From positions 480,001 through 544,000 of the forward strand of contig CAXXYH010000004.1 in the NCBI GenBank assembly GCA_963677925.2: a DNA stretch of 64,000 nt, given 5' to 3'. Positions 771-31,200 of this stretch are shown in pieces. This stretch comes from Spirochaetia bacterium. GTDB lineage: Bacteria; Spirochaetota; Spirochaetia; UBA9216. Position numbers and translations under genes: made by a program. The notes under the pieces are model-generated. The model saw only the letters and a list, made by a program, of their open reading frames with translations. It made no database searches and was not told the DNA's origin. How positions within the stretch are numbered: the stretch's first letter is position 1; each line of letters begins with the position of its first letter.

Positions 771-782
771 GTCATCCACAAT

Positions 783-866
783 GCCCAGGTGGTGAAATTG
801 GTAGACACGCTAGGTTCAGGGTCTAGTGTCCGTGCGGACATGCTGGTTCGAGTCCAGTTCTGGGCA
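783..866 (+). tRNA. tRNA-Leu (anticodon CAG)
   Basis: Acceptor stem GCCCAGG/TCTGGGC, D-loop TGGTAGAC, anticodon arm CTAGG-TTCAGGG-TCTAG, long variable arm, T-loop GTTCGAG; CCA not encoded. Confidence 0.97.
807..866 (+). repeat. attL core (3' 60 bp of tRNA-Leu)
   Basis: ACGCTAGGTTCAGG...CCAGTTCTGGGCA, identical to 36270-36329. Confidence 0.95.
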
Positions 867-868
867 GC

Positions 869-900
869 TAACTCCTTACTTTGTAAGGAGTTATTTTTTT
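869..900 (+). terminator. Intrinsic terminator supplied by the island for the reconstituted tRNA
   Basis: TAACTCCTTAC-TTT-GTAAGGAGTTA perfect 11-bp stem followed by T7. Confidence 0.85.
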
Positions 901-939
901 ATAAAATCAGTATTCTTTTAAAAGCTGATTTTTATGTAA

Positions 940-960
940 AAAAGTGCCTGAAAAGTGCCT
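940..960 (+). promoter_or_regulatory. Putative integrase arm-type binding sites
   Basis: Tandem AAAAGTGCCT at 940-949 and 951-960; related motifs at about 36029 and 36160 near the other att end. Confidence 0.5.
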
Positions 961-1019
961 CAAATTCAAAACTTCAAAATTCCTACTAATTATACATATG
1001 CAAATGATTAGGAGGAAAC

Positions 1020-2159
1020 ATGAAAAGTCCATATTGTTTAAAAAAAAGAAAGCCTCAGAATGTCTGGTATTACAAACTGCAGTATGAAGATACCTATCAT
1101 TCAACCGGAGAAAAAACGAAAGCTGGAGCTGATAAATATGTCATATCCATACTCACGGGAGAAAGATCTCAACGTGTGAATGTAACTGTAAATGAGTTTA
1201 CAAAATCGTTTTTTATCCGGGGAGAGTGTTCATGGATAGAAAATAAGGAATTAAAAGGCAAGACAATTACACCTGAAATGGAAAAGATGAGACGTGGACA
1301 TCTTTTAAATCACTTTCAACCTAAATTCGGAAAACGTAAGATTGAATCAATTACTTCATTTGAAATCGAACAATGGTTAATCAAGCTTGATTTGAGTAAT
1401 ATTACGAAGAATCACATTCTGGATACTGTAAAGATTGTCTGGGCTGAAGCAAAGAAGAGAGGAGAAATAAAAGATAATATAGTTGCAGAATTGGAAAAAT
1501 TCAGCAAGCAAACTGTTGAACGTGATCCCTTCAGTAAAGAAGAGCTGCATTTACTATTTCCAGAAAATCAAAAAGAACTAATTCGTATCTGGGGTAATGA
1601 AATGTTTGCCGGATTATTCTTACTTCTTGCTACTACAGGTTTGAGATTGGGAGAGGCTCTTGCTTTGACATGGAAAGACATAATCTATGAAAAGACATCT
1701 ACGAAATATGTTTTGGATGTGAATAAATCAGTTAAAAATGATAGAAGAATTGGAAATACCAAGAATGGAGAAAACAGAATAGCTTTTATTCTCCCTCAAC
1801 TGTATTCAATACTAGAAGAATGGAAAAAGAAAACGGATTTTAATTCAGAAGAAGATTTTATTTTTCCCAACTATGAAAACAAACCGCTTCAAAGAAAAAG
1901 ATGTCTTGTGATATTCCGTAAGGCTTTGGAACAGACAGAAATTGGTACAGAAAAGAATCTTGTACCTCATAGTTTCAGGCATACTTTTAATACCATGTAT
2001 CGTAATGTGCTTGAAGATGAAGTTCTGAGAAAATTTACAGGGCATTCAGATCAGAAAATGACCGATCATTATGATCATCAAACGGCCGAATCCACGGCTA
2101 TGTTTCTTGCGAAATATGAAGATGATCTTGAGAAGGTCTGGAATAGCATATCCGCATAA
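1020..2159 (+). CDS. int: Tyrosine recombinase / site-specific integrase
   Basis: TGLRLGE (catalytic R), HSFRH (HxxR), GH...MTDHY (catalytic Y); RBS AGGAGG; next to attL. Confidence 0.95.
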   Translation: MKSPYCLKKRKPQNVWYYKLQYEDTYHSTGEKTKAGADKYVISILTGERSQRVNVTVNEFTKSFFIRGECSWIENKELKGKTITPEMEKMRRGHLLNHFQPKFGKRKIESITSFEIEQWLIKLDLSNITKNHILDTVKIVWAEAKKRGEIKDNIVAELEKFSKQTVERDPFSKEELHLLFPENQKELIRIWGNEMFAGLFLLLATTGLRLGEALALTWKDIIYEKTSTKYVLDVNKSVKNDRRIGNTKNGENRIAFILPQLYSILEEWKKKTDFNSEEDFIFPNYENKPLQRKRCLVIFRKALEQTEIGTEKNLVPHSFRHTFNTMYRNVLEDEVLRKFTGHSDQKMTDHYDHQTAESTAMFLAKYEDDLEKVWNSISA

Positions 2160-2167
2160 ATGTCTAA

Positions 2168-2195
2168 AGACGTACAGATTGTTTTCTGTACGTCT
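2168..2195. terminator. Perfect hairpin between convergent integrase and helicase-Rep genes (terminator or origin hairpin)
   Basis: AGACGTACAGA-TTGTTT-TCTGTACGTCT, 11-bp stem, followed by a very AT-rich tract of about 170 bp. Confidence 0.55.
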
Positions 2196-2365
2196 GAGAT
2201 ATCATTATCTCTCTGTTATATATATACTCTTTTCTTAATTATTTTATAATCTACTAATTATGTATAAATATATGATAAATGCCATTATATAGTTATGTAA
2301 ATTACTATAAACCTAAAATATGTATTATATATTTGTTGTAAAACTAAAATCATAACCGATTATAA

Positions 2366-4327
2366 CTATTTATTATCCCAATTTATTTTGATCTTATTTG
2401 TTAAAATACCCTCAACTTTTTCTTCACCAACTACCTTCCCAAATAAAGATATGTACCTACCTGATAGATATTCAAATAGACCTTTTTTCATATTAAGCAG
2501 AGAATATAGGTTTGGATTTTTAGCAAATGCATATTGAGCAATAGCAGGAGTTCCACGTAATCTTACTTCAACCTTCAATGTATATTTTATATGTATTTTG
2601 TTTTCATTCTCTTTCTCTGCAGCATCATACATAACCATAGTTAGAGAATTATATTTGTTTGCATGATGGTTAATGTATGTTGACCCTTCAGTACCATCTT
2701 TCAAAGCATATGGACAGACCTTGTATTTGTTATGATTACTCTTTAAGTCCTTTAGCCTCTTTTCCTCAAAACCCTCTAATACCTTTAGTTGTTTAAGTAT
2801 TTCTTGCTTGAAAGCCTCTCTTTCCGCTTCGTTATTGAATTTGAAGGTATGCTGTAAATCAATTCTATGTATAAATATTTTCTTTATATTAACCCTGTAA
2901 TCAAAGAATTCTATTATTTTATTACGGATTAACTTTAGCATTTCATAATCATCGTATCGATTCTTCTTTAGAAAGTTCAAATCATAGAATTCAAAGAAGA
3001 ATGATTTATCTTTCTTAAATAAGCTTATCTGGTATGAGAATCCATCCTCAGTCTTTTTGCTGATAGCTTTAGGCTGATCTTCGCTATCAGTTTTATAGTT
3101 ACTGATTAGAGGTCTGAAAAATGGTAGATCCTTAAAAGCTATTTTGAATGTTATTGTGTCCATCATACTCATATTGATTTTATTCAATGTGAAATTACGG
3201 TTATCTTTTAGCTCTTTAAATTGTTTGTATGGCTGTAGTTTTTTTCTCTGATTAACAACGAGATCACAGACATCTTTGATATAGAATTTCCTTTCATCTT
3301 CACTGATAGGTGCTGTTTCATATAGGTGTAATTGCTTTTTTACATTAGAAACTGCAGTGAAAAATAAGTTCTTTTCCTCTTCATCTGCATAGAATAGATG
3401 CTTTATACCGTAGAAGAATAAAATATCGCATTCAGGTAATTTATGGATTGTGCAGATTTCTATTCTTTCAATCACCTTTTCCGGAAAAAACAGTTTAATA
3501 AGTTCATAGTCCGATTTATGACGCCCGACTAAACATAATTTATAGGTTGAAGGTATGAGTTTGACTTTCTTGACAATATCTTTTGCAACATGCAATGGCC
3601 CCTGTAAGAAGCTTACTTTTGGTTTATCCCCATTGTCAACAGTATCATCATAAAGTGACGAACTTGGGAATAATTGTCCTATGCAATGATTTAAGAATTT
3701 TATTATTCGTCCATCAGCTCTGTCATTTTTAGTCAGTTCCTCTCTGCTATATGATTCTGCGATATATTCTTCTCTAATCTTATCAAAATTATCTTCTATT
3801 ACAATTTTCCGTTTAATAGTATTAAGGAATCCGTATATTGCTGATAAAGTGCAGCCCGTTATAATTAGATCAGTCGTTTTTCTTATTGGAAGTATATGGA
3901 CAATTTCTTTCTGAAAAATAGTGAAATTTTGATATTCATTAAGGATTATTATATCAATATCCCCGATATACTTTCTTCTTTCAAAATCAGTTAATTTCTT
4001 ATATCCGGTATATAGCTTATCAAATGCTTCCGGGGGTAGATTCTCCTCTTCTTCTTCGAAATTATACTTATTTACAATATCAAGGAATTCTGGTGGTAAA
4101 AGATCATTTGTTTTTAACCCATGATAGCACAAACTTGTAACTGTATGACAAAGCACTTCGTTCGGTAATTCGTTAATCGCTTTCGTTCTTGAAGCCTTTT
4201 TAAAACTTAGATGAAGTATATTGAGATTAGAAGTCTCCTGTAATCTATTACTGATGATCTCAAATATTTGCCAATTTATTCCGGTTCCATTTTTTCCATG
4301 AACTTCTAATAGGTTTCTAACTATCAT
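2366..4327 (-). CDS. Fusion of a degenerate UvrD/PcrA-like SF1 helicase (N-term) and a Rep_trans-like replication initiator/relaxase domain (C-term)
   Basis: SF1A motifs in order but eroded: HGKNGTGIN, ILHLSFKKA, HTVTSLC, IILNEYQN, ITGCTLSAIYGF, LTKNDR, CTIHKLPE, EEKNLFFTAVSNVK. C-term: MDTITF, HRIDLQHT, STYIN, VMYDA, LKVEVRL. ATG at 4327 follows a G-run RBS and overlaps the end of the xis-like gene. Confidence 0.65.
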   Translation of the reverse strand: MIVRNLLEVHGKNGTGINWQIFEIISNRLQETSNLNILHLSFKKASRTKAINELPNEVLCHTVTSLCYHGLKTNDLLPPEFLDIVNKYNFEEEEENLPPEAFDKLYTGYKKLTDFERRKYIGDIDIIILNEYQNFTIFQKEIVHILPIRKTTDLIITGCTLSAIYGFLNTIKRKIVIEDNFDKIREEYIAESYSREELTKNDRADGRIIKFLNHCIGQLFPSSSLYDDTVDNGDKPKVSFLQGPLHVAKDIVKKVKLIPSTYKLCLVGRHKSDYELIKLFFPEKVIERIEICTIHKLPECDILFFYGIKHLFYADEEEKNLFFTAVSNVKKQLHLYETAPISEDERKFYIKDVCDLVVNQRKKLQPYKQFKELKDNRNFTLNKINMSMMDTITFKIAFKDLPFFRPLISNYKTDSEDQPKAISKKTEDGFSYQISLFKKDKSFFFEFYDLNFLKKNRYDDYEMLKLIRNKIIEFFDYRVNIKKIFIHRIDLQHTFKFNNEAEREAFKQEILKQLKVLEGFEEKRLKDLKSNHNKYKVCPYALKDGTEGSTYINHHANKYNSLTMVMYDAAEKENENKIHIKYTLKVEVRLRGTPAIAQYAFAKNPNLYSLLNMKKGLFEYLSGRYISLFGKVVGEEKVEGILTNKIKINWDNK

Positions 4328-4592
4328 AAGACCCCCCGTTTTGAAGGTCCTCATCTGTCTGTAACAACCAATTTAATACTGTATCTCGTCTCCACCTTTT
4401 ATTTCGACCACCAATATTGCCATCGCTTTTTCCGTTATTAGGTTGGAGATATGTACGATTACAAGCTGTTTTGTAACATATTCCCTTGGCTTCACAAGCC
4501 TCTTTAAGCGATAACCAAGCTTTTTTGGGCAGGATGTCTGCTAAAAAGCCATTTTCATTGTTTTGTTCATTTTGATTTTTAATTTTTTCCAT
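4317..4592 (-). CDS. Excisionase/AlpA-like winged-HTH DNA-binding protein
   Basis: WLSLKEACEAKGICYKT...GGRNKRWRRDTVLNWL; small, basic, near the integrase and convergent with it. Confidence 0.7.
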   Translation of the reverse strand: MEKIKNQNEQNNENGFLADILPKKAWLSLKEACEAKGICYKTACNRTYLQPNNGKSDGNIGGRNKRWRRDTVLNWLLQTDEDLQNGGSYDS

Positions 4593-4772
4593 TTATAGCC
4601 TCTTTATGTTTTTGATATTTAATTAGTAAAGGTTCATGAGTGGTCTGGAGTTGATTGGCATTTAGGGGCATATGAGTGAATAGGAAAATATTTAATTATT
4701 CTGTAAGGAAATAATCTCAAATAATGAAAAGATTGCTTGATCAATTTCCATTCATGTCCCCATAATGGGGAT

Positions 4773-5594
4773 ATGAAAAAATCATATAAAATTAAGGATA
4801 AGAGAGAATCTGGAATTTATCTATATGAGCGCTTGTATGAATATGACCCAGAAACTAAAAGGACTAAGCATGGAAAGAAGAGATACATTGGGAAGCTTGA
4901 TGAGAACGGTGAGATTATCAAGAAAGATACTTTGTTAAGTGTTCGGAAGTATCGATTTAATGATTTCATAGGTATAGACGAGAAATTTCCATTGTTAGAT
5001 AAAATACTTTTAAATATTGATATTGATATGACCCATATATCATCAAGTCATCCTATACCCGATAGTACAGTTTATGACTATGTTCTGGAACAACCCTCAA
5101 AAGTAGGGAAATACTATATCGCTATTCATTGGGATAATGGTTTTAAGAATTTTACGATTTCTGCAACTGAAGTTTATAAAGCATCTAATGCGACAGTAAC
5201 CATCAAGAATTCTACAAGACAGAATACTCCAACCAAAAAATTATGGTATATTAAGAATTTTAATAGTTCTTCAATAGAAGATATTTTTAATCGAACGGAT
5301 AATCACAGATTAGGTAGTAATGGACTATTAAAAGCTCCCTATGCAAAAGACACTGATATTCAAGAAATCGGTAAAATGTATAAACTATTATTGTTTCTTG
5401 TAGAATCATTTAAACTGAAAACGCAATGTGCAGAAGTTGGTTTCAGAGAAGCCCTTGATGAACTTTCCATCTTTCTCTGGTATTATCTAAAAAATCATCA
5501 AATAGATTCCTTATTTGATGATATTAGTTATATTTCTAATTGTTGTATCTGTATTTTCCCCGAAAGAGAAGAGATAAGGAAAATGCAGTATTAA
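4773..5594 (+). CDS. Hypothetical protein with an N-terminal segment resembling IS4/IS1634-type transposase N-termini
   Basis: GIYLYERLYEYDPETKRTKHGKKRYIGKLDENG; no DDE core recognised; ATG 4773 follows GGGG (ORF track starts at 4737). Confidence 0.5.
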   Translation: MKKSYKIKDKRESGIYLYERLYEYDPETKRTKHGKKRYIGKLDENGEIIKKDTLLSVRKYRFNDFIGIDEKFPLLDKILLNIDIDMTHISSSHPIPDSTVYDYVLEQPSKVGKYYIAIHWDNGFKNFTISATEVYKASNATVTIKNSTRQNTPTKKLWYIKNFNSSSIEDIFNRTDNHRLGSNGLLKAPYAKDTDIQEIGKMYKLLLFLVESFKLKTQCAEVGFREALDELSIFLWYYLKNHQIDSLFDDISYISNCCICIFPEREEIRKMQY

Positions 5595-5650
5595 ATTGAT
5601 GAATTAAAAAAGCTTGTGAAGATATTCTCAATACTAATTGTGTTTAATTA

Positions 5651-5989
5651 TTATTTTGCTGCAAGAATACTAACACTCCAGCCTTTTTTGTCTGCAACAT
5701 TAAGTTTATAATGGGATCCATCTTTTAGGTAGACTTTAAGGCATTTTAATATTGGTAATATCATTAATAACATTGAGTAATGGCCTATAGTAACATCCGC
5801 AATATTTGATATTGGTATTTCAAGTGTTTTTCTTTTAACATGATTCTCATGAATTATTCTCTGATTAGTAAGGTATAGATGACCTCCTTTAGCTCCAGTG
5901 ATAAACTTGATAGGACCTCCTCCACTACGACGAATCAGTTCTTCATTTTCATTTAATTTGGTTTTTGGAAGTTTGATTTTTGTGTTCAT
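5651..5989 (-). CDS. Small PH/GRAM-like domain protein
   Basis: LNENEELI...GGHLYLTNQRIIHE...LEIPISNIADV; RBS GGAG. Confidence 0.7.
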   Translation of the reverse strand: MNTKIKLPKTKLNENEELIRRSGGGPIKFITGAKGGHLYLTNQRIIHENHVKRKTLEIPISNIADVTIGHYSMLLMILPILKCLKVYLKDGSHYKLNVADKKGWSVSILAAK

Positions 5990-6007
5990 TTTTGATCTCC
6001 ATTAATA

Positions 6008-6055
6008 GCTGCAAATATGCAGCAATTAAATAATATAATAATCTGCTGCATATTT
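6008..6055. promoter_or_regulatory. Operator-like inverted repeats in the divergent promoter
   Basis: AAATATGCAGCA (6013-6024) / TGCTGCATATTT (6044-6055) perfect 12-bp IR around TATAAT (6034-6039); third half-site GCTGCA at 6008. Confidence 0.65.
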
Positions 6056-6060
6056 CAAGC

Positions 6061-6273
6061 ATGGATATAGGGAAAGCCATAGTTAGTATTCGAAAATCAA
6101 AAAAGATATCACAGAATAAAATAGCAACATTAACAAATCTAAATAGGGGTTATATCTATCGCTTAGAAAATGATCATATCAGTCCAAGTATAAATACATT
6201 AGAGATCATAGCTGAAGCAATGAATATTAAAGTTTCGGATATAATTATTTATGCTGAAACATGTAATGGATAA
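6061..6273 (+). CDS. XRE/Cro-family HTH transcriptional regulator
   Basis: IRKSKKISQNKIATLTNLNRGYIYRLENDHISPSINTLEIIAEAM. Confidence 0.9.
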   Translation: MDIGKAIVSIRKSKKISQNKIATLTNLNRGYIYRLENDHISPSINTLEIIAEAMNIKVSDIIIYAETCNG

Positions 6274-6409
6274 ATATCAATTATTGCTGCTTTATTCACG
6301 TTTTTAAAACTTGAAATTGAATTCCAGAGAGATTAAATTATAAATATAGACGTGATTTGTTAACCGGATTGCAGGCGTCTTAAAATATAATGCTAAAAGG
6401 AACCTAATA

Positions 6410-6853
6410 ATGAATAATTCAAATAAAGAACGGCTTCCCTCATATGAATGTATGTTTTGTAAAAGAACATTGAAACAAGTCGGTGGCCAAAGAATTATCT
6501 CACAGCACAATTTGAAAATCTGCTTATCTAATAGATTTCTTGGAGGTGGTAATCCTGATAATTTTGATGTTTCAATAAAAATAGAAGAAGATTTGTACAT
6601 AAATTTTCGTGGTCCAAAAGATGAATGGAATAATAATATTAAAGAGTATATAAAAAAAGAATTTTTAAATGATCTACTACCATGGTTCTGTCAGGAGTGT
6701 GGGAAAAGAATGTGTCAAGATTGTGGCTCTCCGACTCAATATTTAGGTGGTTGTGATATTCTAAATGATAACGGTTCTTCTTCACATTCTGGAATATTTG
6801 GAATACCTTCGGGATGTATTAATCCTAAATGTAAGAAGCATCTTAAATCATGA
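6410..6853 (+). CDS. Cys-rich putative zinc-binding hypothetical protein
   Basis: CMFC...CQECGKRMCQDC...GCINPKC; RBS AAGGA. Confidence 0.65.
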   Translation: MNNSNKERLPSYECMFCKRTLKQVGGQRIISQHNLKICLSNRFLGGGNPDNFDVSIKIEEDLYINFRGPKDEWNNNIKEYIKKEFLNDLLPWFCQECGKRMCQDCGSPTQYLGGCDILNDNGSSSHSGIFGIPSGCINPKCKKHLKS

Positions 6854-7323
6854 TATTTCAATGCAATTTTTAGATGAATAAGTGAGTAATATTCATCATT
6901 GTATATTAACTTTATACTTATTTCTTTTCTATTCTCATGCATTGAGGCGCCCTGAGGAGGGATTTCGTTTTGTTCAAAGGATTCAAACTTGGATTGATCC
7001 GAAGTAATTTCATTTAAAATTTCACGATCAATTATAAAAGAATTAAGAATAGCAATTCTCCGAATTTCCTTTACTGTGGTATTAATTTTATGGATTGCTG
7101 AAGCATAGGAGCGCCAATCACCATCTTCTATGCAAGAAATAAGTAATTGTGATTCCTCTTCAATCTCAATCGGCATTTTGAAAATAGTTTTATAGGCTTT
7201 ATAACTGTCATCAAAAACAACTGAAAACCGTCTCATCCTATCTTTTATAATATAGAAATATTGCCACATAAATTGCTCTGAGGGGATTAAATTTAAATTT
7301 CTGGAATTGTTTTTATACCGCAT
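6736..7323 (-). CDS. Hypothetical protein, possibly a remnant
   Basis: 195-aa ORF; last 118 bp overlap the convergent Cys-rich gene; no motif recognised. Confidence 0.35.
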   Translation of the reverse strand: MRYKNNSRNLNLIPSEQFMWQYFYIIKDRMRRFSVVFDDSYKAYKTIFKMPIEIEEESQLLISCIEDGDWRSYASAIHKINTTVKEIRRIAILNSFIIDREILNEITSDQSKFESFEQNEIPPQGASMHENRKEISIKLIYNDEYYSLIHLKIALKYHDLRCFLHLGLIHPEGIPNIPECEEEPLSFRISQPPKY

Positions 7324-7466
7324 AACGGATTGAAGATGAACAACAAAATATCACTTATATTGTACTCCCATTTGAAAGCTGAGAGCTTGGACCGGATTCT
7401 TGTGATACTGTTGGATATGCCTTTTGGTGTTTTGGGGATGGTCATTTCCATCTTGTATTCATTCAT
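7293..7466 (-). pseudogene. Short ORF, probably a truncated gene start
   Basis: RBS AGGAG then MNEYKMEMTIPKTPKGISNSITRIRSKLSAFKWEYNIS...; stops after 57 aa and overlaps the next ORF in another frame. Confidence 0.35.
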
Positions 7467-7692
7467 ATATGGCTCCTGTCTATGAAATGATGAAATTTTA
7501 CGTCATTACAGATTGAGGAGTAACCCTGGGTGTTCTACCAGTAGGATTGAATAGGAAAAAATTACCACATTCCAGCTTGTCATGAGGTGTAATGTAACTC
7601 TGAAAGATTTAATACATGACTTTTTGCTTATTTTACCCGATAATAGCAGCATAAACTGACAATTTTGGAAAAAGGATTCTGATAAAAATATA

Positions 7693-8925
7693 ATGATGAT
7701 AAATCGAGATGCTGGTGATAAATTTAAAGGTCTAACACTTCAAAAAGTACGAGCTGTGTATTCTGTTCTAAAAGCCCTTAACACATCTCAGAAAAAAGTC
7801 GACCTGATTTATTTTGCGATTGAAGCAGATGACGACATACAAATTGTAGAAAGTACAGAAGGAAAACTCAATCTAACCTTTGAGCAAAACAAAGATCTCC
7901 AGAGTAAAGGTGTGCTTACAATAAACAGTACTGATGTATATAAGAGCCTTATCAACTTTATTGACATTTGGATTCGACAGCGTGAAAGTGACTCGATAAA
8001 ATTCGTTTTTTATACAACATGTAATATTGGAAAAGAACAAACTTCCAAAGTCATTACTGAGTTAGAACTATCACTACCCGAAGAACCGGTTATCAATATA
8101 ATAAAGAGCTCAGAAATCGATGACGGGTTTCTTGAAGACTTTTTTGTTCCATATATGAGTGAGGTTTATCGTAAAGCATACGAATCACATGACAAGTCAT
8201 ATATAGGAATTATTTCCGAATGGGATTTGGAAAAGTGGAAATCTTTTTTGAATCGAATTGAATGGGTGTTTCTTGGCCGTTCTGTTGATAAAATTGATGA
8301 AGAAATTATCTCTGAGATAACAAAGTGTGATTTCTATAATGTATCCTTGGTAGGAAAAGAAAAAGCTATTAGTGCTCGTATAGAGCAGGAACTGGAACGA
8401 CGTATGGCAAATGATGACTATGTTTCACGATTCTTGCATTTATCGGATATTAAGCTAATCTTCAAAGAAGCAGAATCAGATGACATTGATTTTGATGATA
8501 TTACTGGCGAAATCTTAGACCAGATAGATGTTACGGATACAAGAGATGTTCAGCAAAAAATCAATTCGGTTTGCCCCTCTGCAAGTGGTAGAGTTCTTAA
8601 CCATTATAAAATATTAGCCAGTGAAGCTTTACTCGTAGAACGATCTCAGAAATTTCCACACCCTTTTAAAAGTCAAAAGTACCAGATTTATACTGCTGTA
8701 CAGGATTACATCATTCGTAATTCAGAGGATTTACTGGAATTGAATGAGAAAGCTCTTATAGGTGTTCTTGATTCTATGTGTGACTTGGCCATCCAGAGGG
8801 TTAAGGTTGATAAGGCAGACTTCCGGTATCCAGTAAATGATGATCAATCAATAAGAAATATGGTCTTTGGGCTTTTAGACCAATGTTACATAGCATTTGA
8901 TGGGGAGGTTAGTATTGAATCCTAA
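7693..8925 (+). CDS. lmuA: Lamassu/ABC-3C effector: Cap4-like PD-(D/E)xK endonuclease plus ABC-3C C-terminal domain
   Basis: DAGDKFKGLTLQ...IEADDDI...FEQNK nuclease pattern; C-terminal GLLDQCYIAF; first gene of an overlapping three-gene operon. Confidence 0.75.
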   Translation: MMINRDAGDKFKGLTLQKVRAVYSVLKALNTSQKKVDLIYFAIEADDDIQIVESTEGKLNLTFEQNKDLQSKGVLTINSTDVYKSLINFIDIWIRQRESDSIKFVFYTTCNIGKEQTSKVITELELSLPEEPVINIIKSSEIDDGFLEDFFVPYMSEVYRKAYESHDKSYIGIISEWDLEKWKSFLNRIEWVFLGRSVDKIDEEIISEITKCDFYNVSLVGKEKAISARIEQELERRMANDDYVSRFLHLSDIKLIFKEAESDDIDFDDITGEILDQIDVTDTRDVQQKINSVCPSASGRVLNHYKILASEALLVERSQKFPHPFKSQKYQIYTAVQDYIIRNSEDLLELNEKALIGVLDSMCDLAIQRVKVDKADFRYPVNDDQSIRNMVFGLLDQCYIAFDGEVSIES

Positions 8926-9430
8926 AAAGCGAATGATGTTCATTGCATCTGAGGATTACTATTTTATCACTTATTCAATTCTACTAATTCTCAAGCATCT
9001 TGATTGTTATACTGAAGAGAAAGCCTTGGCTGATAAGCAAAAATTAAATATGCTCTCAGAATTAGTATCAGACAGAAAATTACTAATCATTCTTGAGCGA
9101 TCTAAAAACCTACAAATTATTATTTCTCGGCCGGATATTAATTACCTTGAAGGTGCGTATGATGTAGTCCAAACGAGGACCGCATTGATAAATAGAGTTC
9201 TTTTTATATTAAATCATCATGACTATATAAGGTTTGGAGAAAAACAGAACGTTTATTTGAATGTAGAAAAAATTGACCATTCGTTCTTTGATGATGACGT
9301 TTTCCAGGATGAAATTGAGAATATAAGGAGAATAAAAAAGCTTTTTTCGCGTGTTAGAACAATGAGGTATGAGAGCCTTAAAGAAAGCGTGTTCTTAAGT
9401 AATGGAGTATTAGCATGGCCGGCCTTATAA
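8915..9430 (+). CDS. lmuC: Lamassu/ABC-3C middle component
   Basis: About 170-aa helical protein overlapping both neighbours; TTG at 8915 after GGAGG (ORF track starts at 8897). Confidence 0.7.
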   Translation: MNPKKRMMFIASEDYYFITYSILLILKHLDCYTEEKALADKQKLNMLSELVSDRKLLIILERSKNLQIIISRPDINYLEGAYDVVQTRTALINRVLFILNHHDYIRFGEKQNVYLNVEKIDHSFFDDDVFQDEIENIRRIKKLFSRVRTMRYESLKESVFLSNGVLAWPAL

Positions 9431-11340
9431 TAAAGAACGTTATCTATGAAGGTGAAAATTATCGGTTTAAATCACCTGATTTGACAACAGGATTAAATAT
9501 AATCGAAGGTCCTAATGGAACTGGAAAAACCACATTTATTCAGCTTATCTACTTTGCATTGGGTGGGAAAGTAAAACGATTTGATGATAATAATGAGGAT
9601 TTTCATAAAGAGATTATAGAGGACAAGAATAATCGAGTCAAACTTATCATTGATATAGATTTAACTGAATACACATTGATTCGAGACTTTAGTAAGAATG
9701 AAGTCATGGTTGTTTATAGTGATGGAGAAATAGAAGTATTTCCAATTACACGAAGGCAAAACAGAATCTTTTCAGATTGGTTATTGGATAAGCTAAATAT
9801 TAAAAATTTCGAACTTTACCAGGGTAGTTATCATGGAGTTATCAACATTACAGATTTGATGAGATTGGTGTACTATGACCAGACGTCTAAGACTGATAAC
9901 ATTTATAAAGATATTGATAATGATAGTTTTGTGACTAACTCTACTGAATTTAGAAAAGCAATATTTGAAATTTTAATTGGGGGTAATTATCAAGAATATT
10001 ACTCTTTATATTCAAAATTCAAGAAACTTGAAAAGAACCTTTCAGAAGAACGTGTTGCATTAAAACAATATAAGAATTTCTTAAGTGAAGTAAGTGAAGG
10101 TCGTGAACAGAAGAACTCCACAGCGCTTAAGAAAGAGATAGATGAACTTAATAAACAGAAAGAGAAATTATTAATACACCGTGAAAGGATTTCCTCAGAA
10201 AATGTATCAAAACAAGATGCTCAAGAACAATATGATGAACTTAAAACTGAACTTTCAACTTTGCGTATAGAGATTGATAATAATTATGAAGAAATGATTT
10301 CACTCAGTAATAAGAAAAAAACATTTTTAGAAGCTATAGGTGAATTTGAGCAAGAAATTAAAAAGATAAAGAAAATAATCCACACGAATGAAACGATTGG
10401 TCTATTTGAACCTGATATATGTCCAATATGTTTACGAGAAGTATCAAGGGATGCTGATCACTGTATATGTGGAAAAGAAATTAAAGAAGATGAGTATGAA
10501 AGATTTTTCTATGATACAAGAGAGTATAAAGAATTACTAAAAGAAAAGAAGCGCAACATTCTTACCCTTCACGAAAGTATTGATATTATCAATCAGGATT
10601 TAACAAGATATAAAACTCATTATGATGCTTTATTAGAAACAGAAAACAACCTGAAAGGGGATTTGAAATCCTTTGTAGATAAGATTAGAAATACAGATAT
10701 TGTTAATGAAATCAGTAAGATTGATTCCAATGTATTTGTAATTAATTCTCAAGTCTCAAATCTAACTAACTATTATAAGTTTGAACAAAAAAGACAGAAG
10801 AAAGAAAAAGATGTTGATAGTGCTCAAAAAAAGTATGACAAGGTTAAACGTAGTTTAGATAAAGCCCTAATTGAAGCACAGGAAGATTTGGAGTTGAAGG
10901 TACAAGAATTCAATAAGATTTATGAGGATTTGATGGTTGCAAATGTTGATTTATGTCGAACTGTCCGATTAAGCACCAGCTATCAACCAATTATTAATAA
11001 TGGCGAAGCTATGCCCGCAAGTATCAATGTTCATAAGAGGTTTTTGTTTTTTTCAACTTTGCTGTCTTTATCATTAAATCATGATATACCCTTTCCTCGG
11101 ATTTTATTAATAGATACACCACAAAATCTTGGTATTGATCCCGAGCACCTTAATGAGCTTATTACGTCACTCTATACGATCCTCACTACAGGTAAGAAAA
11201 CAGGTCAGGTGATTATGACGACAGGCCGAGGGCGATATCCTGACAGCTTAAGTGAACTTAGTCTGTTAAAGTTGAGTGAAGAAAATCGTTTATTAAAAAG
11301 TTCCGAACCAGTAGAACCCGACGAAAAAAATGGAGATTAA
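9415..11340 (+). CDS. lmuB: Lamassu/ABC-3C SMC/Rad50-like ATPase
   Basis: Walker A GPNGTGKT, Q-loop YYDQ, long coiled coils, central CPIC zinc hook (plus HCICG), Walker B ILLIDTP. Confidence 0.85.
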   Translation: MAGLIIKNVIYEGENYRFKSPDLTTGLNIIEGPNGTGKTTFIQLIYFALGGKVKRFDDNNEDFHKEIIEDKNNRVKLIIDIDLTEYTLIRDFSKNEVMVVYSDGEIEVFPITRRQNRIFSDWLLDKLNIKNFELYQGSYHGVINITDLMRLVYYDQTSKTDNIYKDIDNDSFVTNSTEFRKAIFEILIGGNYQEYYSLYSKFKKLEKNLSEERVALKQYKNFLSEVSEGREQKNSTALKKEIDELNKQKEKLLIHRERISSENVSKQDAQEQYDELKTELSTLRIEIDNNYEEMISLSNKKKTFLEAIGEFEQEIKKIKKIIHTNETIGLFEPDICPICLREVSRDADHCICGKEIKEDEYERFFYDTREYKELLKEKKRNILTLHESIDIINQDLTRYKTHYDALLETENNLKGDLKSFVDKIRNTDIVNEISKIDSNVFVINSQVSNLTNYYKFEQKRQKKEKDVDSAQKKYDKVKRSLDKALIEAQEDLELKVQEFNKIYEDLMVANVDLCRTVRLSTSYQPIINNGEAMPASINVHKRFLFFSTLLSLSLNHDIPFPRILLIDTPQNLGIDPEHLNELITSLYTILTTGKKTGQVIMTTGRGRYPDSLSELSLLKLSEENRLLKSSEPVEPDEKNGD

Positions 11341-11640
11341 TTTTCACATTCATAAAAATAACTAAATCTGCTAAGTCGACAAACAGTTCTAACGGAAGAC
11401 TGTAGACTGATATTGGAACAGGATGGCAATCAATATATGTATAACATAATTGATATTATGCTATATGAAAGCTTAGGTTTTATGTCGTACATATAGATAC
11501 TTTTTTCTAATCAAAATACAGAAAAATTTTGTCATTTGAGTTCATAGAGAAAAAACTACACAACAAGGAAGGGCTACCAAATTTAATTGTAGAAATATTT
11601 CTCAATTCAATTTCAAAGACATAGAGTGTAGTTATACAAA

Positions 11641-25290: not shown

Positions 25291-28200
25291 GTGAGAGTAA
25301 AAATGAAAATGACAAGAAAAATATCAATTATTATAGTTTTATTATTTATATCACTGTTTAATGTCCATGCTTCGGCAGGAAATCTTGAGTTGAGTATAAT
25401 TGGATCCTCCAATAATACTGATGTGTTGAATCCTGCTGAATATGCAGCAGATGATAATATACTGACTTATTGGGCGCTTGACCCTGAAGAAACTGATGGC
25501 TGGTTTGAAGTCAGCCTGGATGAATTATCATGTATTTATGCAATAGAGCTTTCCGGAACACTTGATACCGAAAATGTTATCAACTTTGAATACGATTCAG
25601 ATGGAATCTGGAAAAGTTTTATCAATACTGAACTTACTTCTATTGGCTCAAGTGGCGAATATATTGATCTATCTGGTTATAAAATAGTAACCGATAAAAT
25701 CAGGGTTTATCTGCAAGGTGAAGATACGAGTTATAGTTTCATTGAAGAGTTTAGTATTTTTGGTGAAAGTTATTCTGACACATATCATAAATTGGGGATT
25801 AGTAATGTTAGCGGAGAGGAAAACATTTTTTACCCGTTATCAAATCTTACGGATGAGAATACAAAAACTTACTGGGAGACTGAAAGTATAGGTACCTGGA
25901 TAGTAAGTATACTTCAGGGGGCTAAAAACTGGATAACTGACTGTTTTGAGACTGGTAACTTTAATTTTAGAAAAAGAAGCAATTTATGGGAAGATGAAAA
26001 CGGGGCAGTTATAAGTTTAGCGGAAACTTCGACAATCTATCGAATAAAAGCTTATCTTTCGCAAGATTATTCAGGAAAGATAATACTCAATAAATTGGAT
26101 GATGATGAGTGGACTGAAATTTCAGTAATAGAAGAAGGAACTGAACCGGGCTGGTATATTATTGATTTACCCGATGGGCTTAATACTGATTCTATTCAAA
26201 TAATATCTGAGGATACGGACTGGTGGTCATTGCTCTTGGGTCTCGATACCGCAGAAATTACAGGACTTTGTGAAATAGAGTTCTGGGGAAAATCAGATTT
26301 ACCTTCGAGTAAAGAGCTAACGTTTTATACTGAAGATACTAACATAGTTGAAGGATTAAACAGTGTTTTTTCTACCTCTGAATCAGAAAAGTATGAAGTG
26401 GAACTTGTTGTTGATGCAGACGCAGGTGATTTTACATGTATCGAACTAAATGGTACTCAAGTACAAATCCCTTTTATTCAGGAAATCGAGGGAGCTTTTT
26501 ATTATCAGAGCATAATTGATAACGATTTACTCTGGAACGGAGACAACTTCTTAAGATTAGAATCCTCTGATTATCACCTACTAAGTGGTTCGATAGTTGG
26601 TCTTTCTAAAGATGGAAGCCTTTCTTTCAGCGATGGCATAAAAGATTATTTTACAGCAGATTCAACCGGATATAATGAGATAGAATTTGATTCAGAAATT
26701 TCACTTGAAGAAGTCCTATTGACAACTAATGATGTTTCCAATGAAAGAGTTTATTACAGATCAGAAAATCAATGGTTTGAATTGGCCTGGAGTGGAGTAA
26801 CTGAGCATTCAGAAATATATTCAATTTTTCTTTCAGAATCAGGAAATAATACTAATCTGGTGGCTGATTGTATACGAATTGAAGGCTTGACATCAGGAGC
26901 GCAATACGGGGTTACTGTTAAAGGCAGTAGAATATCAGATAGTGCACCGCAGATTCAGATGTACTGGCCAAAAAATGGTGAAGTTATTGAACAAAGCGGA
27001 CTGGGTACAATGTTCGCGGTAGGTTATGTTGATGATGAGAATGCTGTTATCACTGTTAATGATGAAGAGGCACAGAATATCGGTAACCTTTTCTGGATTT
27101 CAAATATGCCTGGTGATGTTATCACAGATGGAGAATATGCACTTCATATAGCTGCAACAGATTCAGAGGGAAGGACAACTGAGAAAACAATATACTGGTC
27201 TAATATTGACAGTAATGTCTACAATTGTGATCTCGGTGAAGATATTATTTATACTCTTGATGACAGTATCACAGTAGAAGGGGGTACAAATCCTTCTGCG
27301 ACTGTTTATATAAATGATGAAATAGTTGACGGCAGTAGCCAGCGATATTCCAAAGATATTGAACTTGCTCCGGGACTTAATATTATTACGATTAAATTTG
27401 TTCATCGGACACAGGGGGTATTCGCACTTCTTCAAAGACGTATTTTTCTTGTCACAACAGAACCCGTTCTTGAAATTAGCCAGCCTAACGATATTGATTA
27501 TACCTCAGCACAGCAAATTGATGTGTCAGGAACTTTGTCAGTATCTGGAGCCTACGAAATTGAATGCGAAGGTTATGAAGTGCAAGACGATGGAACTTTG
27601 TTTACTGTTCCTTCAGTGACTCTTGTAAGTGGAGCCTACAATGATATTAAAGTAACTTTAACCGATCAGTTTGGAAGAACATCAACCGATAGCGTCTCTG
27701 TTTTCTGCGATATAAATGCTCCGGTGTTAACAGGTATAACACCAGAAAGCGGGTCAATATTATCTGAGAGTGTAAATACTTTTGTAATCACAACCTCAGA
27801 TGAAAGTGAGCTTTCAGTTTTTATGGATGGACTGGTAGTCCCTGGAGGAAGCGGAATATTTGAAAAGACTATTTCGCTTTTAGATGGGTTTTATTCTCTT
27901 TCTCTGGTTTTAAAAGATAAGGCTGGAAATACTACACAGGTTTATCTTGATTACACAGTGGATACTGTACCTCCGGTTGATTTTACAGTCGATGTAACCC
28001 CTGCAGGTTGGACCTCTGATAATCAGCCTATAATCAGTTTTGAAACAACAGATGCCACTTCCGGTGTTGATTGTTATGAGTTGTCAATTGATGAAGGCAG
28101 TTTCTATGTAATTGAAAGTCCATACCAGCTGCCAGTTCAGAGTGAAGGTGAGCATACAATTGCTGTGAGAGCTGTAGATAACGCAGGACATATGACATAT

Positions 28201-31200
28201 TCATATGCAGAAACAAAAACAGATACAATTCCGCCTGATATTTTGACAGATATTGAGATTGTCCCAGGCAATGGTCAACTTGTCTTAAAATGGGAAGATG
28301 GAAATGATGATGTAATTGCATATGAAATCGTGCGTACTCCTGCCTGGGATTTAGATGAACAAATCAGAGTTGATCGAGCAGATGAGATACAGGAGTATCT
28401 TGATACAGAAGTTATAGACGGGAATACATATTCATATATTATCAGATCTGTAGATAGAGCGGAGAATAAAGGTGTATTTTCAACTGCAAATAGCGTGATA
28501 CCTGGTATTGAGACTGAATTATTAATTGAAGATGGTATTACAAAGGTAGAGTATGAGACGGCTACTTTATATTTAAAGAAGGAAGGATTACCAGGGGATG
28601 CTGTTAGTGTAAGAATTGCTGAAGCAGATCCAGAGTGGCAAACTGAAGCTGATGAAGATTTTGAACATGATTTTGTTGGTGCAGTATATAATTTTTCACT
28701 TCTTGACAGTAATGGAGAAGATGTTTCATCCGGAGATGTTTTTTCTCAACCATACATTGGAATAATTGACTATAATCCCGAATTACTTCCAGAAGGCTTT
28801 AATGAACAAAACTTAAGTGTATATACTTTTGATGGACGATGGGGTCGCTGGGAACGCATTGAGGATTGCTCAGTAGTTCCTGAGAATAATCAGATTGTAT
28901 TTACTTCAATGCATTTTTCAATGTATGCACCAGTAGCAACTTCAGTTCAGGATCTATCACCTGAGGAAATTGCTGATGCAGGATATTCTCCATTTGGCAC
29001 TTATGTTAACCATGAAGGGTTTACTGTAAGTCCACAAGGAGGAAATGCTCACACAAGTATGACCGAACTTGTGCTAACCGGGCCAAGTGGTTTTGATTTT
29101 GAATTAAAACGATATTATGATTTGACCGTTGCCAAAATGGATACCAGAGCAGATATTCCTTCATGGGCAATAAAATATTTAGAAAACCAGGGTGATTATG
29201 CATACTCTATGGGTAAAGGTTGGAGGTTGAACCTTCCGTATATTAAAAATGCATCTTCACAACAGTATCTTGTGATGCCGGATGGAAGTATGTATGGATT
29301 TGAATCCCTTGAATTAGAAGATTCATCAATAATCTCTACTAATAGAACACTTTATCTTGAAGGTCATACCGGAGAACATTTTAGTTTGATGGTTAAGCAA
29401 TCAAAAAAGGAAGAAGAAGTATATTTTATTGGAGCAGAAGGTGTTGTTGAACATACATGGACTTCGCTTTATTACATCCTGACTTTAAATGATGGTACAA
29501 GATATGTAATGGATTCAAAAGGAAGAACAAAGAAGATATTGAGCCCTGAAAGTATTGAACAAACAGGCTTTCTGGGATTCCTAAATCTTAGTTCTGGATT
29601 TGAAGTTAATATAAGTTATGTAGACGATGGATATGAAATTTCACAGATTGAAGATTCAATTGGCAGGAAGATCAATTTTGAATACGCTGGGATAAGTGAT
29701 TCACTCGCAGTCCCATATATCACAAAAATTAGTTTAGATTCAAATGATCCTTATGGAAGAAGTATTAGTTATACCCAAAATGATGGTTATTTAACTTCAT
29801 GTACAGATGTAGGTGGAAGAACTTGGACATACAGCTATGATAATGCGTATTATCTCGGAGGTGCATCAAATCCGATACCTTTTAATCTTACCGATGCTCT
29901 TGATGATTATTCAGATGATTCGGAACTTAATGATTTAATCGATAAATTATCAGAACCAACTTCAAATTATACTTATAAACCACTATATGCTATAGAAGGC
30001 TCTGGTAAAGGACGTATTGAAGTAACTTATGACACAGATAGTCAAAGTTTGGATGGTGAAGATTATTTAAAGGTAGTTACAAGACAAGTTGCTGTATTCA
30101 ACGATCATGCAGCGGGAAGTGATGAAAGCGTCCGAGCAACTTGGTATGATTACAATTTTACTTACAATGATGATATTGAAGGGTATTATCTTTCTAAAAC
30201 TATAGTAAATGAATTAAATGATAACAGGTACACAGTTTATAATTATGAATACAGAAAACTTGTAGAAACATATTGGAATGAAACAGATGACGGAGAGATT
30301 GATGAAGTAACTGTTTATGCATCAGAGGATGCAGGAAATAGAATAAGTAGTACTATATTTTATGAGAAGATAAATAATGACATAGACAACCTTAGTCTTT
30401 TGAAAGATAAAAGCATAGAATATCTTGCAGACACTGATATTAATCCTTCTGCTGAAACTATAAAGCATGGTAGTGGCAGTGATTACCTAACTATGAGCTA
30501 TAGCTATGATGGATGGGGTAACAAGGAAACAGTCACAGAAGAAAATCACTCTAGTGGAAGAATACGGAAAAATATTACATATAGAACATTCTCAAGTGGA
30601 AATCAGGTGGTTGGGGCTTCTTTTAAAGACTATTCAAATAGCGGTTTAACTAATGGTAGTATCCCAGCGAGAATAAAGAGTCTTATTATCAAAGAGGAAA
30701 TTGACAATTATTCACCGAGTATTGTCTCAAATGGAACGGCTTCGAATGATGTTGGAACAGCAAAGAAGGAATATATATATTACTCTTATAACGACGATGG
30801 AAGGATAACTGGCAAAGCGATCTGGGATTCTTCAAATAATAAGTGGCAAAAAACTGACTATGTTTGGAATTCTGTTGGTGATATGACTCAGGTAACTAAT
30901 CCTGATGGGCATATAATCGCATATACTTATGATGATGACCATTATCTGTCTGGTAAAACAGAGAAAGCAATTAAGGATGTAGATGGAAATTCATCTGATC
31001 TTATTTGGCTATATGATTATGATTGGACGGGATGGAAAGTTAGTGAAACTGACCCAAAGAATCAAGTAATCACACTGACATATGACAAACTTGGAAGAAT
31101 TACTAGTAAGAGTGAACCAGGTGATGCAGGTGGGATCTATAAAACCTCTGTAAGTTATAATGATAGTCTCGGAAGTTTAAGTTCTGTTATGACTGACACA

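Follow-up and report, generated by a model that had tools for sequence, protein, structure and literature searches.

Rep_trans initiators of the RepC/RepD type and the MOB_T relaxases are textbook nickases that recruit a UvrD-family helicase of the host, and the fit between the two partners has been studied indirectly. In RepDE, D46, D142, and E214 are given as the metal ligands of the active site and Y191 as the nucleophile (Carr et al., PMC4797284). The Rep_trans motifs are described in PMC5714925 as N′ (Asp), I (RxD), II (T/SxY/ExG), III (YxKxxE), and IV (W/LxRxE). In the literature searched, as far as its available text goes, helicase fusions are described for HUH-type enzymes only, and no Rep_trans–helicase fusion was found. 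Here we describe a gene of a Spirochaetia bacterium, located in a 64,000-nucleotide stretch of contig CAXXYH010000004.1 (positions 480,001 to 544,000; this whole stretch is called the window), whose product appears to combine both partners. As judged from sequence and structure models, the nickase–helicase partnership known from plasmids is present here in one protein, and we refer to the gene as the helicase-Rep gene.

The helicase-Rep open reading frame (ORF; coordinates of the features are collected in Table 1) runs uninterrupted through 653 codons to its stop. Its translation bore out the intact frame of 653 amino acids (aa) that an earlier note, made from the letters of this DNA, had reported for a fusion of a dead UvrD/PcrA-type helicase with a Rep_trans-like initiator. 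The upstream ATG at 4354 is also in frame; starts at or close to the ATG at 4327 are seen in the database copy and in both close homologues. The G+C content of the DNA around the gene is 30–33%, compared with 43–47% further along the window. A 1.96-kb frame that stays open in DNA of 30–32% G+C is not a chance event. The protein itself matched no Pfam family (0 families at E ≤ 1) and had no NCBIfam or PADLOC match. A PHROGs search gave two matches above E = 0.1, all of them noise with E values of at least 0.2.

A word-indexed search of 5.8 billion clusters returned two relatives only, P0002 (76% identity) and P0003 (74% identity), both equal in length to the window protein (P0001). An exhaustive phmmer search of 1.84 billion representatives returned 70 proteins at E ≤ 1e-3, 17 of them at E ≤ 1e-30. 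Most of these relatives are 610–760 aa long and align over their whole length, so the two-domain architecture defines a rare family. Apart from P0002 and P0003, its members are at most 32% identical to the window protein. Ten members were looked up. Nine were singleton clusters and one was a three-member cluster, mostly on short contigs, and the sole name found among them was "ATP-binding domain-containing protein"; a further member, P0075, is a "hypothetical protein" (JGI). Eight of the ten were on Logan contigs of 2.6–5.6 kb, which may be either fragments or entire small replicons. By these searches, the helicase-Rep family is rare and unannotated.

The family was also sparse around the host. 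A profile of the C-terminal domain matched two of the 401 genomes in the sample of the host phylum and one of the 11 genomes of the order, the host's own genome being counted in both; the sole other positive genome in the phylum sample was G247. In 40 related genomes, the full-length profile found housekeeping UvrD-type proteins only, among the matches listed (229 further matches lay beyond). tblastn of the helicase-Rep protein against plasmid and phage collections gave no match. A match to a giant-virus contig in the related-locus search contained a helicase only and was set aside as unrelated.

The C-terminal domain was modeled from residues 365–653 with a 58-row alignment. The model was confident, with a predicted local distance difference test score (pLDDT) of 85.8 and a predicted template-modeling score (pTM) of 0.86. 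Foldseek against the Protein Data Bank (PDB) ranked RepSTK1 first (4cij_A, E = 1.1e-4, prob 0.99) and RepDE second (4cwc_A, E = 4.2e-4, and 4cwe), with prob 0.97–0.99 for 4cij_A and 4cwc_A, followed by TATA-binding proteins (TBP). VIA-align, an independent all-against-all search, ranked them alike, with Z scores of 8.9 for 4cij_A (218 residues aligned, root-mean-square deviation 4.8), 7.9 for 4cwc_A, and 6.0 for TBP. In a BFVD structure search, the best matches (E = 1.7e-7 to 1e-5) included inovirus initiators; rank 4 was A0A345MNV4, and rank 6 was an inovirus "Replication-associated protein G2P". The Rep_trans fold is described as TBP-like, and A0A345MNV4 as an inovirus initiator with a PF02486 domain, in PMC13107129. 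Matches to TBP are to be expected with such a fold. Among the ESM Atlas neighbours of the C-terminal domain, Phage_CRI accounted for 14% of members and Rep_trans for 32%.

As the structural scores were moderate, the catalytic motifs were examined. Column counts were made over 47 full-length family members, in which the order of the Rep_trans motifs was reproduced on predicted strands as Asp, RxD, (T/S)xY, Tyr, and KxE. D390 of motif N′ was present in 47/47 members. R488 and D490 of motif I were present in 31/47 and 44/47. In motif II, (T/S)549 was found in 43/47, Y551 in 47/47, and N553, at a position where Rep_trans has Gly, in 45/47. Y567 of motif III was invariant (47/47), stood at a strand end, and aligned with the Tyr of RIYDK. 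K585 of motif IV was likewise invariant, with Lys in place of Arg, and E587 was present in 46/47; this motif aligned with RvE. The five residues D390, D490, Y551, Y567, and E587 occurred together in 43 of the 47 members, including the three proteins with a dead helicase described below. The motif spacings resembled those of Rep_trans, except that motifs I and II are separated by an insertion made up of a long helix and a disordered loop.

The family profile was also aligned by hhalign with a reference of eight Rep_trans ORFs from genomes of the same phylum. Five blocks were in register: DSI with DWL, RIDL with TRIDL, TxY with TxY, Y-D with RIYDK, and KxE with RxE. Motifs N′ and I were aligned with DWLxF and TRxDxA of the Rep_trans ORFs. 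The score was 20.9; 60 column shuffles gave a mean of 13.1 (sd 2.3, max 19.5), none of them reached the observed score, and the reversed control gave 11.5. The residues so aligned are those given as the metal ligands and nucleophile of RepDE, and they agree with the five motifs of PMC5714925. An hhalign alignment in global mode was meaningless and was discarded. The strings that the earlier note had read in this part were all present (D390, H-R488-I-D490-L, S-T-Y551, Y567-D, and K585-V-E587-V-R-L), and the Rep_trans fold that it expected was supported by Foldseek and VIA-align, with RepSTK1 and RepDE on top, and by the motifs in their proper order. The C-terminal domain is Rep_trans-like, a diverged and apparently catalytically complete branch of the superfamily by sequence and model. 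We filed it as Rep_trans-like and not as a PF02486 member, because the Pfam models miss the protein and its motif III has the lysine at another position.

Canonical PF02486 Rep_trans ORFs of 322–447 aa occurred in six of 201 sampled genomes of the phylum (G222, G153, G186, G146, G088, and G048; loci L016–L023). Five of these genomes belonged to one family, in which 23 genomes were sampled.

The N-terminal half was identified as a helicase because its relatives and its fold support this assignment, the protein itself being unmatched by Pfam. UvrD-helicase (PF00580) matched 40 of the 47 full-length members, AAA_19 matched 39, and UvrD_C (PF13361) matched 32. The family profile matched PcrA in the PDB (1pjr, E = 7.6e-41), as well as UvrD and Rep, and GajB was also matched (2e-20). 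An AlphaFold model of the full-length protein (pLDDT 87.8, pTM 0.85) was used for Foldseek, which returned UvrD (2is4_B, E = 2.7e-12), PcrA (1qhg, 1e-11), and Rep (1uaa, 4e-11). The helicase core is compact, at about 360 aa. The models supported the predicted two-domain protein, with an N-terminal fold of the UvrD/PcrA type of superfamily 1A (SF1A) and a C-terminal Rep_trans-like nickase domain.

The helicase motifs of the window protein deviated from those of the family. Walker A (residues 14–18) reads GTGIN, compared with GxGK[T/S] in the family; motif II (residues 130–133) reads NEYQ, compared with DExQ; motif III (residues 158–162) reads GCTLS, compared with GDxxQ; motif V reads TIHKL--PECD, with a gap of two residues, compared with TIHxxKGxEAD; and motif VI (residues 327–329) reads SNV, compared with SRA. 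Over the 47 members, the Walker A Lys (K17 column) was present in 40, replaced by Ile in the clade of the window protein only (three members), and gapped in four. The motif II Asp (D130 column) was present in 43 and was Asn in the window clade only, and both close homologues additionally have Gly for the motif II Glu. The motif III Gln (Q162 column) was present in 40 and the motif VI Arg (R328 column) in 43. All four of these ATPase residues were retained in 35/47 members. Loss of all four was found in P0001, P0002, and P0003 only. These three have Ile and Asn at the Walker A Lys/Thr, Asn at the Asp, Ser, His, or Arg at the Gln, and Asn at the Arg, and they have the two-residue deletion in motif V in common.

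In SF1 helicases, ATP-driven translocation is impossible once the Walker A lysine and the arginine finger are lost. The helicase half of the window clade is therefore predicted, from its sequence, to be an ATPase-dead pseudo-helicase. As the dead motifs recur in P0002 and P0003 and the motifs are canonical elsewhere, the pseudo-helicase is a small derived clade. Motor degeneration may have occurred more than once within the family. Four members without the full set of four residues lack only the aligned N-terminus. P0038, P0040, and P0043 have DDFE in motif II and Arg in place of the motif III Gln, and Glu replaces the motif II Asp in P0020. P0061, which lost the Gln and the Arg, kept GKT and has DGYH, GNKYA, and SCA.

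For this half of the protein, the earlier note fared well on the facts and, with one nuance, on their reading. All the changes it listed in Walker A, Walker B, and motifs III, V, and VI are present and common to both close homologues, and the UvrD fold it expected for the N-terminal ~360 aa agrees with the Pfam matches of the relatives, the family profile, and Foldseek. It had held that canonical motifs in close homologues would speak for recent decay. The two closest homologues (74–76%) are equally dead, so that decay in a single genome does not account for the changes, but the motifs are canonical in the rest of the family, with all four residues in 35/47 members. Its view of a Rosetta-stone fusion with a dead helicase stood as to the fusion; the dead form is confined to a small derived clade, and it is the canonical family that deserves the name of Rosetta stone.

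The fate of the dead domain was followed in the three lineages. Within P0001–P0003, the N-terminal domains were 70–75% identical and the C-terminal domains 80–85% identical, and the frame was open in all three. In FastTree trees of the two halves, the ratio of N-terminal to C-terminal branch lengths was 1.01 for the family outside this clade, 1.54 on the stem of the clade, and 1.80 inside it. The rate therefore rose after the motifs were lost, only about 1.8-fold. In motif III, the 12 closest members all have I164, and most of them have Y165 and F167. The aromatic residues of PcrA motif III touch single-stranded DNA (ssDNA). From these sequence comparisons, we read the dead helicase fold as being under constraint, with a retained non-catalytic role. 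It may serve as an ssDNA binder, a helicase adaptor, or a decoy, and may take part in replication of the island, as the earlier note had suggested.

Table 1. Features of the helicase-Rep locus and its surroundings, in window coordinates
Feature	Position	Strand	Remarks
tRNA-Leu, anticodon CAG, integration target	782..868	+	ARAGORN
Left direct-repeat copy (tRNA-Leu 3′ 60 nt)	807-866		Perfect repeat
Variable low-GC module (0.30-0.33)	867..11445	.	Composition; comparison with G001
Tyrosine integrase, 379 aa	1020..2159	+	Pfam Phage_integrase 1.3e-24; PHROG integrase 2.9e-46
11-bp perfect stem, 6-nt loop	2168..2195	.	Repeat search; in the integrase/helicase-Rep spacer
Whole helicase-Rep ORF	2366..4327	-	653 aa plus stop; alternative ATG at 4354 gives 662 aa
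C-terminal Rep_trans-like nickase domain (residues 376-653)	2369..3202	-	Putative nucleophile Y567; putative metal ligands D390, D490, E587
N-terminal UvrD/PcrA-like SF1A domain (residues 1-360)	3248..4327	-	Walker A Lys/Thr, Walker B Asp, motif III Gln, motif VI Arg replaced
91-aa gene	4317..4592	-	11-nt overlap with helicase-Rep start; Xis or HTH_17-type look, lead only
HTH_3 (Cro/CI-type) regulator, 70 aa	6061..6273	+	Pfam HTH_3 8.4e-12; PHROG transcriptional regulators
Lamassu-like three-gene cargo operon (410, 177, 641 aa)	7693..11340	+	Last gene LmuB, PADLOC 2.2e-53 (9415-11340)
Distal 60-nt tRNA-Leu 3′ copy, attR-like	36270..36329	+	35.4 kb from tRNA

The gene lies in an island next to a tRNA-Leu gene. 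The 3′ end of the tRNA occurs in two copies only, at up to three mismatches, and nowhere else in the window. The 35.4 kb between them contain the low-GC module, a type II secretion system (T2SS) with its secretin (about 12.1–21.1 kb), large surface proteins with PKD and Big domains, and an RHS protein. The last is a 3345-aa RHS-repeat protein (25291–35328, plus strand) with F5/8 type C, Big_13, and RHS core domains, and it is followed by a 154-aa ORF without family (35348–35812, plus strand), a layout usual for an interbacterial toxin and its immunity gene.

The tRNA and the repeat are also found, at a similar distance from each other, in genome G001, which belongs to the same genus and is 91% identical to the window from position 11446 onward. 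In place of 867–11445, G001 carries 10.8 kb of other DNA, without integrase and without a helicase-Rep gene. The site after the tRNA-Leu behaves as a hotspot for defence genes and other cargo. The helicase-Rep module, which lacks an attachment (att) repeat of its own, makes up the variable section on the tRNA side of a larger island bounded by the repeats. The slot in G001 (L038, G001:C7:563600-575200) encodes an OLD-family nuclease (AAA_15 and TOPRIM), a 706-aa GNAT-PIN protein, and an ASCH protein, together with two rve transposase genes/insertion sequence (IS) copies, an ABC-2 transporter, and a MerR/GyrI-like regulator. A third copy of the repeat, 85% identical, lies 4.3 kb further on in G001.

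The stop codons of the integrase and helicase-Rep genes face each other across an AT-rich spacer of 206 bp. Folding of the DNA of 2155–2370 (z = −3.1) retained the spacer stem in the centroid. The stem may function either as a terminator or as an origin or nick-site hairpin.

The 91-aa protein encoded upstream of helicase-Rep had 45% identity (E = 9e-25) with the product of the ORF that immediately precedes P0075 on a metagenome contig (locus L039) and is coupled to it in the same way; the window helicase-Rep protein and P0075 are only about 25% identical. The 91-aa protein was also 69% identical to P0078, which presumably shares a contig with P0003, as both contigs measure 1,778,337 bases. 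By these comparisons, the 91-aa gene appears to be conserved beside three family members. The protein had no Pfam match, and a small-ORF profile against the PDB gave only matches with E > 0.1. Its ESM Atlas neighbours, as a lead only, were clusters of helix–turn–helix (HTH) regulators, Tn916-Xis, and HTH_17 at 0.93–0.94.

Other genes of the module were of regulatory or cargo type, and several ORFs in the rest of it had no identified family. A 17-nt inverted repeat (6008–6024/6044–6060), operator-like, lies just upstream of the HTH_3 gene, and a 112-aa ORF with weak GRAM/Vps36-like matches (5651–5989) is divergent from that gene. The first two genes of the Lamassu-like operon had no PADLOC, Pfam, or PHROG match, and the operon is possibly a variant of Lamassu whose effector has escaped recognition. 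In G247, a canonical 633-aa member (L014:8819-10720) stands divergently beside a tyrosine integrase, near a Type ISP restriction–modification (R-M) system, GmrSD, and IS elements. An adjacent tyrosine integrase was thus seen in two of the three contexts, the window and G247. In the third, L039, the gene after P0075 encodes a 1226-aa protein of unknown function.

Taken together, the helicase-Rep protein is probably, though far from certainly, the initiator that processes the DNA of an island which bears an integrase and lies at tRNA-Leu, with helicase and nickase fused, acting in rolling-circle replication and possibly in transfer. The integrase, perhaps with the 91-aa protein, would excise the island. 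On the circle, the C-terminal domain would bind an origin, with a metal held by D390, D490, and E587. Y567 would then attack one strand and become linked to its 5′ end, and the freed 3′-OH would prime rolling-circle synthesis, or the strand would be transferred. In canonical members, the fused motor would unwind from the nick in cis, as PcrA does in trans for RepC/RepD. The motor of the window clade would neither bind nor hydrolyse ATP, and unwinding would therefore have to come from a host helicase of the UvrD/Rep/PcrA type; the host genome encodes UvrD-like ORFs of its own. The retained dead fold may act as a DNA clamp, as a structural partner of the nickase, or as a helicase adaptor.

Several observations weigh against a Rep_trans-type initiator of a mobile island. 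The structural scores are not high: the template-modeling score was about 0.32, and the Z score of 8.9 has to be read against chance or unrelated best matches that reach 7–8. The hhalign profile–profile score was weak (P = 0.045, probability 1.2%). PF02486 and PF05144 gave 0 matches in the host genome, and profile searches found no Rep in the PDB by sequence, a profile of the close homologues giving 0 matches and one of the C-terminal domain a single chance-level match (E = 0.098). The motif III Lys stands at +5 (K572, 46/47), not at +2 as in YxKxxE of Rep_trans. No att repeat marks the right end of the variable 10.6-kb module, where synteny breaks at about 11445, and the 60-bp repeats spanning 35.4 kb are also present in G001 without a helicase-Rep gene. 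Neither the repeat search nor the DNA fold found an origin, an iteron set, or a convincing nick site beyond the 2168–2195 stem. The L039 context lacks an integrase within 12.4 kb, and each of the three contexts has or may have defence genes. The depth of the island contig was 12.7, compared with 11.5–13.1 for the flanks, without joints, and no excised or amplified form was seen in these contig-level data. Among the sequencing runs, the sole full holder was a contig assembly, maybe that of the source sample, and no RNA holder was listed; contig-level run data are uninformative on excision or expression.

The least improbable of the alternatives, though still improbable, is that an integrative mobilizable element (IME) has in this protein its MOB_T-like relaxase, which would nick an origin of transfer (oriT) and export the strand through the conjugation pore of a helper; the small upstream protein would then be a relaxosome accessory factor or Xis. 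MOB_T relaxases are described as Rep_trans proteins of integrative and conjugative elements (ICEs) and IMEs, several of which integrate at tRNA-Leu (PMC5704250, PMC12857230), and the same enzymes are said to serve often in both replication and transfer (PMC5714925). The module of integrase, Xis-like protein, and nickase resembles those of Tn916 and ICESt3, and Tn916-Xis is among the ESM Atlas neighbours of the 91-aa protein. The partners for export did not turn up, however: VirB4 (PF03135) and VirD4-type proteins (PF02534) had no match in the 99.6%-complete genome, TcpA/FtsK-type coupling proteins not being part of that search, and family-library scans found no coupling protein among the island genes. 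MOB_T is described in PMC12857230 mainly from Bacillota, and the host here has a secretin-bearing T2SS.

The defence genes in the neighbourhood allow a further explanation, in which the protein is itself defence or competition cargo, a nuclease–helicase-type immunity protein that nicks invading rolling-circle phages or plasmids; in the window clade, the dead UvrD fold would bind DNA or titrate a host helicase needed by the invaders. The contexts hold LmuB of Lamassu (window), Type ISP R-M and GmrSD (G247), and the 1226-aa unknown protein (L039), the same site in G001 carries an OLD-family nuclease, and UvrD-like helicases occur in defence systems, GajB being matched by the family profile at 2e-20. 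We nevertheless hold this to be quite unlikely. The invariant Tyr and the Asp/Asp/Glu set are the signature of a reversible transesterase and not of a degradative nuclease, the helicase-Rep protein had no PADLOC match, the coupled Xis-like gene and the adjacent integrase fit the DNA-processing module of the element itself, and defence genes are ordinary cargo of such islands.

A more specific and slightly less probable proposal is a weapon against rival rolling-circle elements, which would nick the origins of inovirus-like phages or rolling-circle plasmids, with the dead UvrD fold as a roadblock or a titrator of the host helicase. If it were true, the protein would be a dominant-negative initiator carried as defence cargo beside Lamassu. 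A more moderate reading takes the canonical family as an undescribed self-unwinding Rep_trans-type replicase of integrated elements, and the dead-motor clade as a natural experiment in which unwinding is returned to the host.

Least probable of all is a decaying relic, a functionless protein that is losing its helicase half in a fixed island. In its favour, all key ATPase residues are gone, the N-terminal domain evolves 1.5–1.8 times faster relative to the C-terminal domain than elsewhere in the family, the contig-level data showed no excised form, and G001 lacks the gene. Against it, the frame is open without stops in three lineages that differ at 25–30% of N-terminal positions, and P0001–P0003 carry identical substitutions (I, N, N) at three of the four key residues. 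The catalytic set of the C-terminal domain is untouched, and the acceleration is modest and probably far from that of an unconstrained sequence.

The family is of use in several ways. A natural fusion gives a fixed nickase–helicase geometry to model and crystallise. Members with a live-looking motor and members with a dead one form an experimental pair. The family adds a branch to the Rep_trans superfamily that is invisible by sequence, as Rep-Arvir did, and integrated islands now come within the range of the superfamily. For a class of small defence-carrying islands, the family may also identify the gene for replication or mobilisation, which is hidden under "hypothetical" or "ATP-binding" annotation.

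Among known systems, the Rep_trans initiators of the pT181 family (RepC/RepD/RepDE and RepSTK1) are the closest. They have the same fold and are the best solved matches to the C-terminal domain, their motifs follow the same order on β-strands (Asp, RxD, (T/S)xY, Tyr, basic-x-Glu), and they show the same pairing of a nickase with a UvrD/PcrA-type helicase, host PcrA being recruited in the systems as described. The helicase of the window protein, in contrast, is covalently fused N-terminal to the nickase. Further differences are that the sequence is too diverged for PF02486, that the motif III lysine is shifted, and that the stretch between motifs I and II contains an inserted long helix and disordered loop. 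The helicase of the window clade is also predicted to be dead, and the setting is an integrated island and not a small plasmid.

The inovirus initiators (gpII/G2P, Phage_CRI) are the best structural matches to the C-terminal domain in BFVD. For the archaeal Rep-Arvir, kinship with Rep_trans is likewise described as visible mainly via structure and the conserved Tyr and acidic residues, and unlike the helicase-Rep protein, these initiators are without a helicase domain as described in PMC13107129.

The MOB_T relaxases (RelSt3/OrfJ of ICESt3, NicK of ICEBs1, and Orf20 of Tn916) are described as needing PcrA and the processivity factor HelP. They are alike in being Rep_trans-type enzymes of integrated elements that bear an integrase and Xis, and in their described dependence on a UvrD-family helicase. 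Their accessory domain differs, being described in PMC12857230 as an HTH and not as a helicase. At our locus, moreover, no VirB4/VirD4-type match was found in the host genome, and the host is outside a Bacillota-type setting.

Helitron RepHel and the Rep proteins of CRESS viruses and parvoviruses are fusions of an HUH nickase with a helicase. The same one-polypeptide logic is described for MOB_F TraI/TrwC, some MOB_Q relaxases, and the Rep_2–helicase proteins of streptococcal IMEs (PMC5704250, PMC12857230). The nickase folds are unrelated, HUH in those proteins and TBP-like Rep_trans here, and their helicases are usually C-terminal and of the SF1B or SF3 type, whereas the helicase here is N-terminal and SF1A.

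Pseudo-helicases and pseudo-ATPases are kept as scaffolds in other systems, where the RecA-like fold stays constrained after loss of Walker A, Walker B, and the arginine finger. Here, by contrast, the predicted loss affects one half of a fusion while the catalytic set of the other half is complete, and the dead form can be compared directly with relatives whose motor is apparently live.

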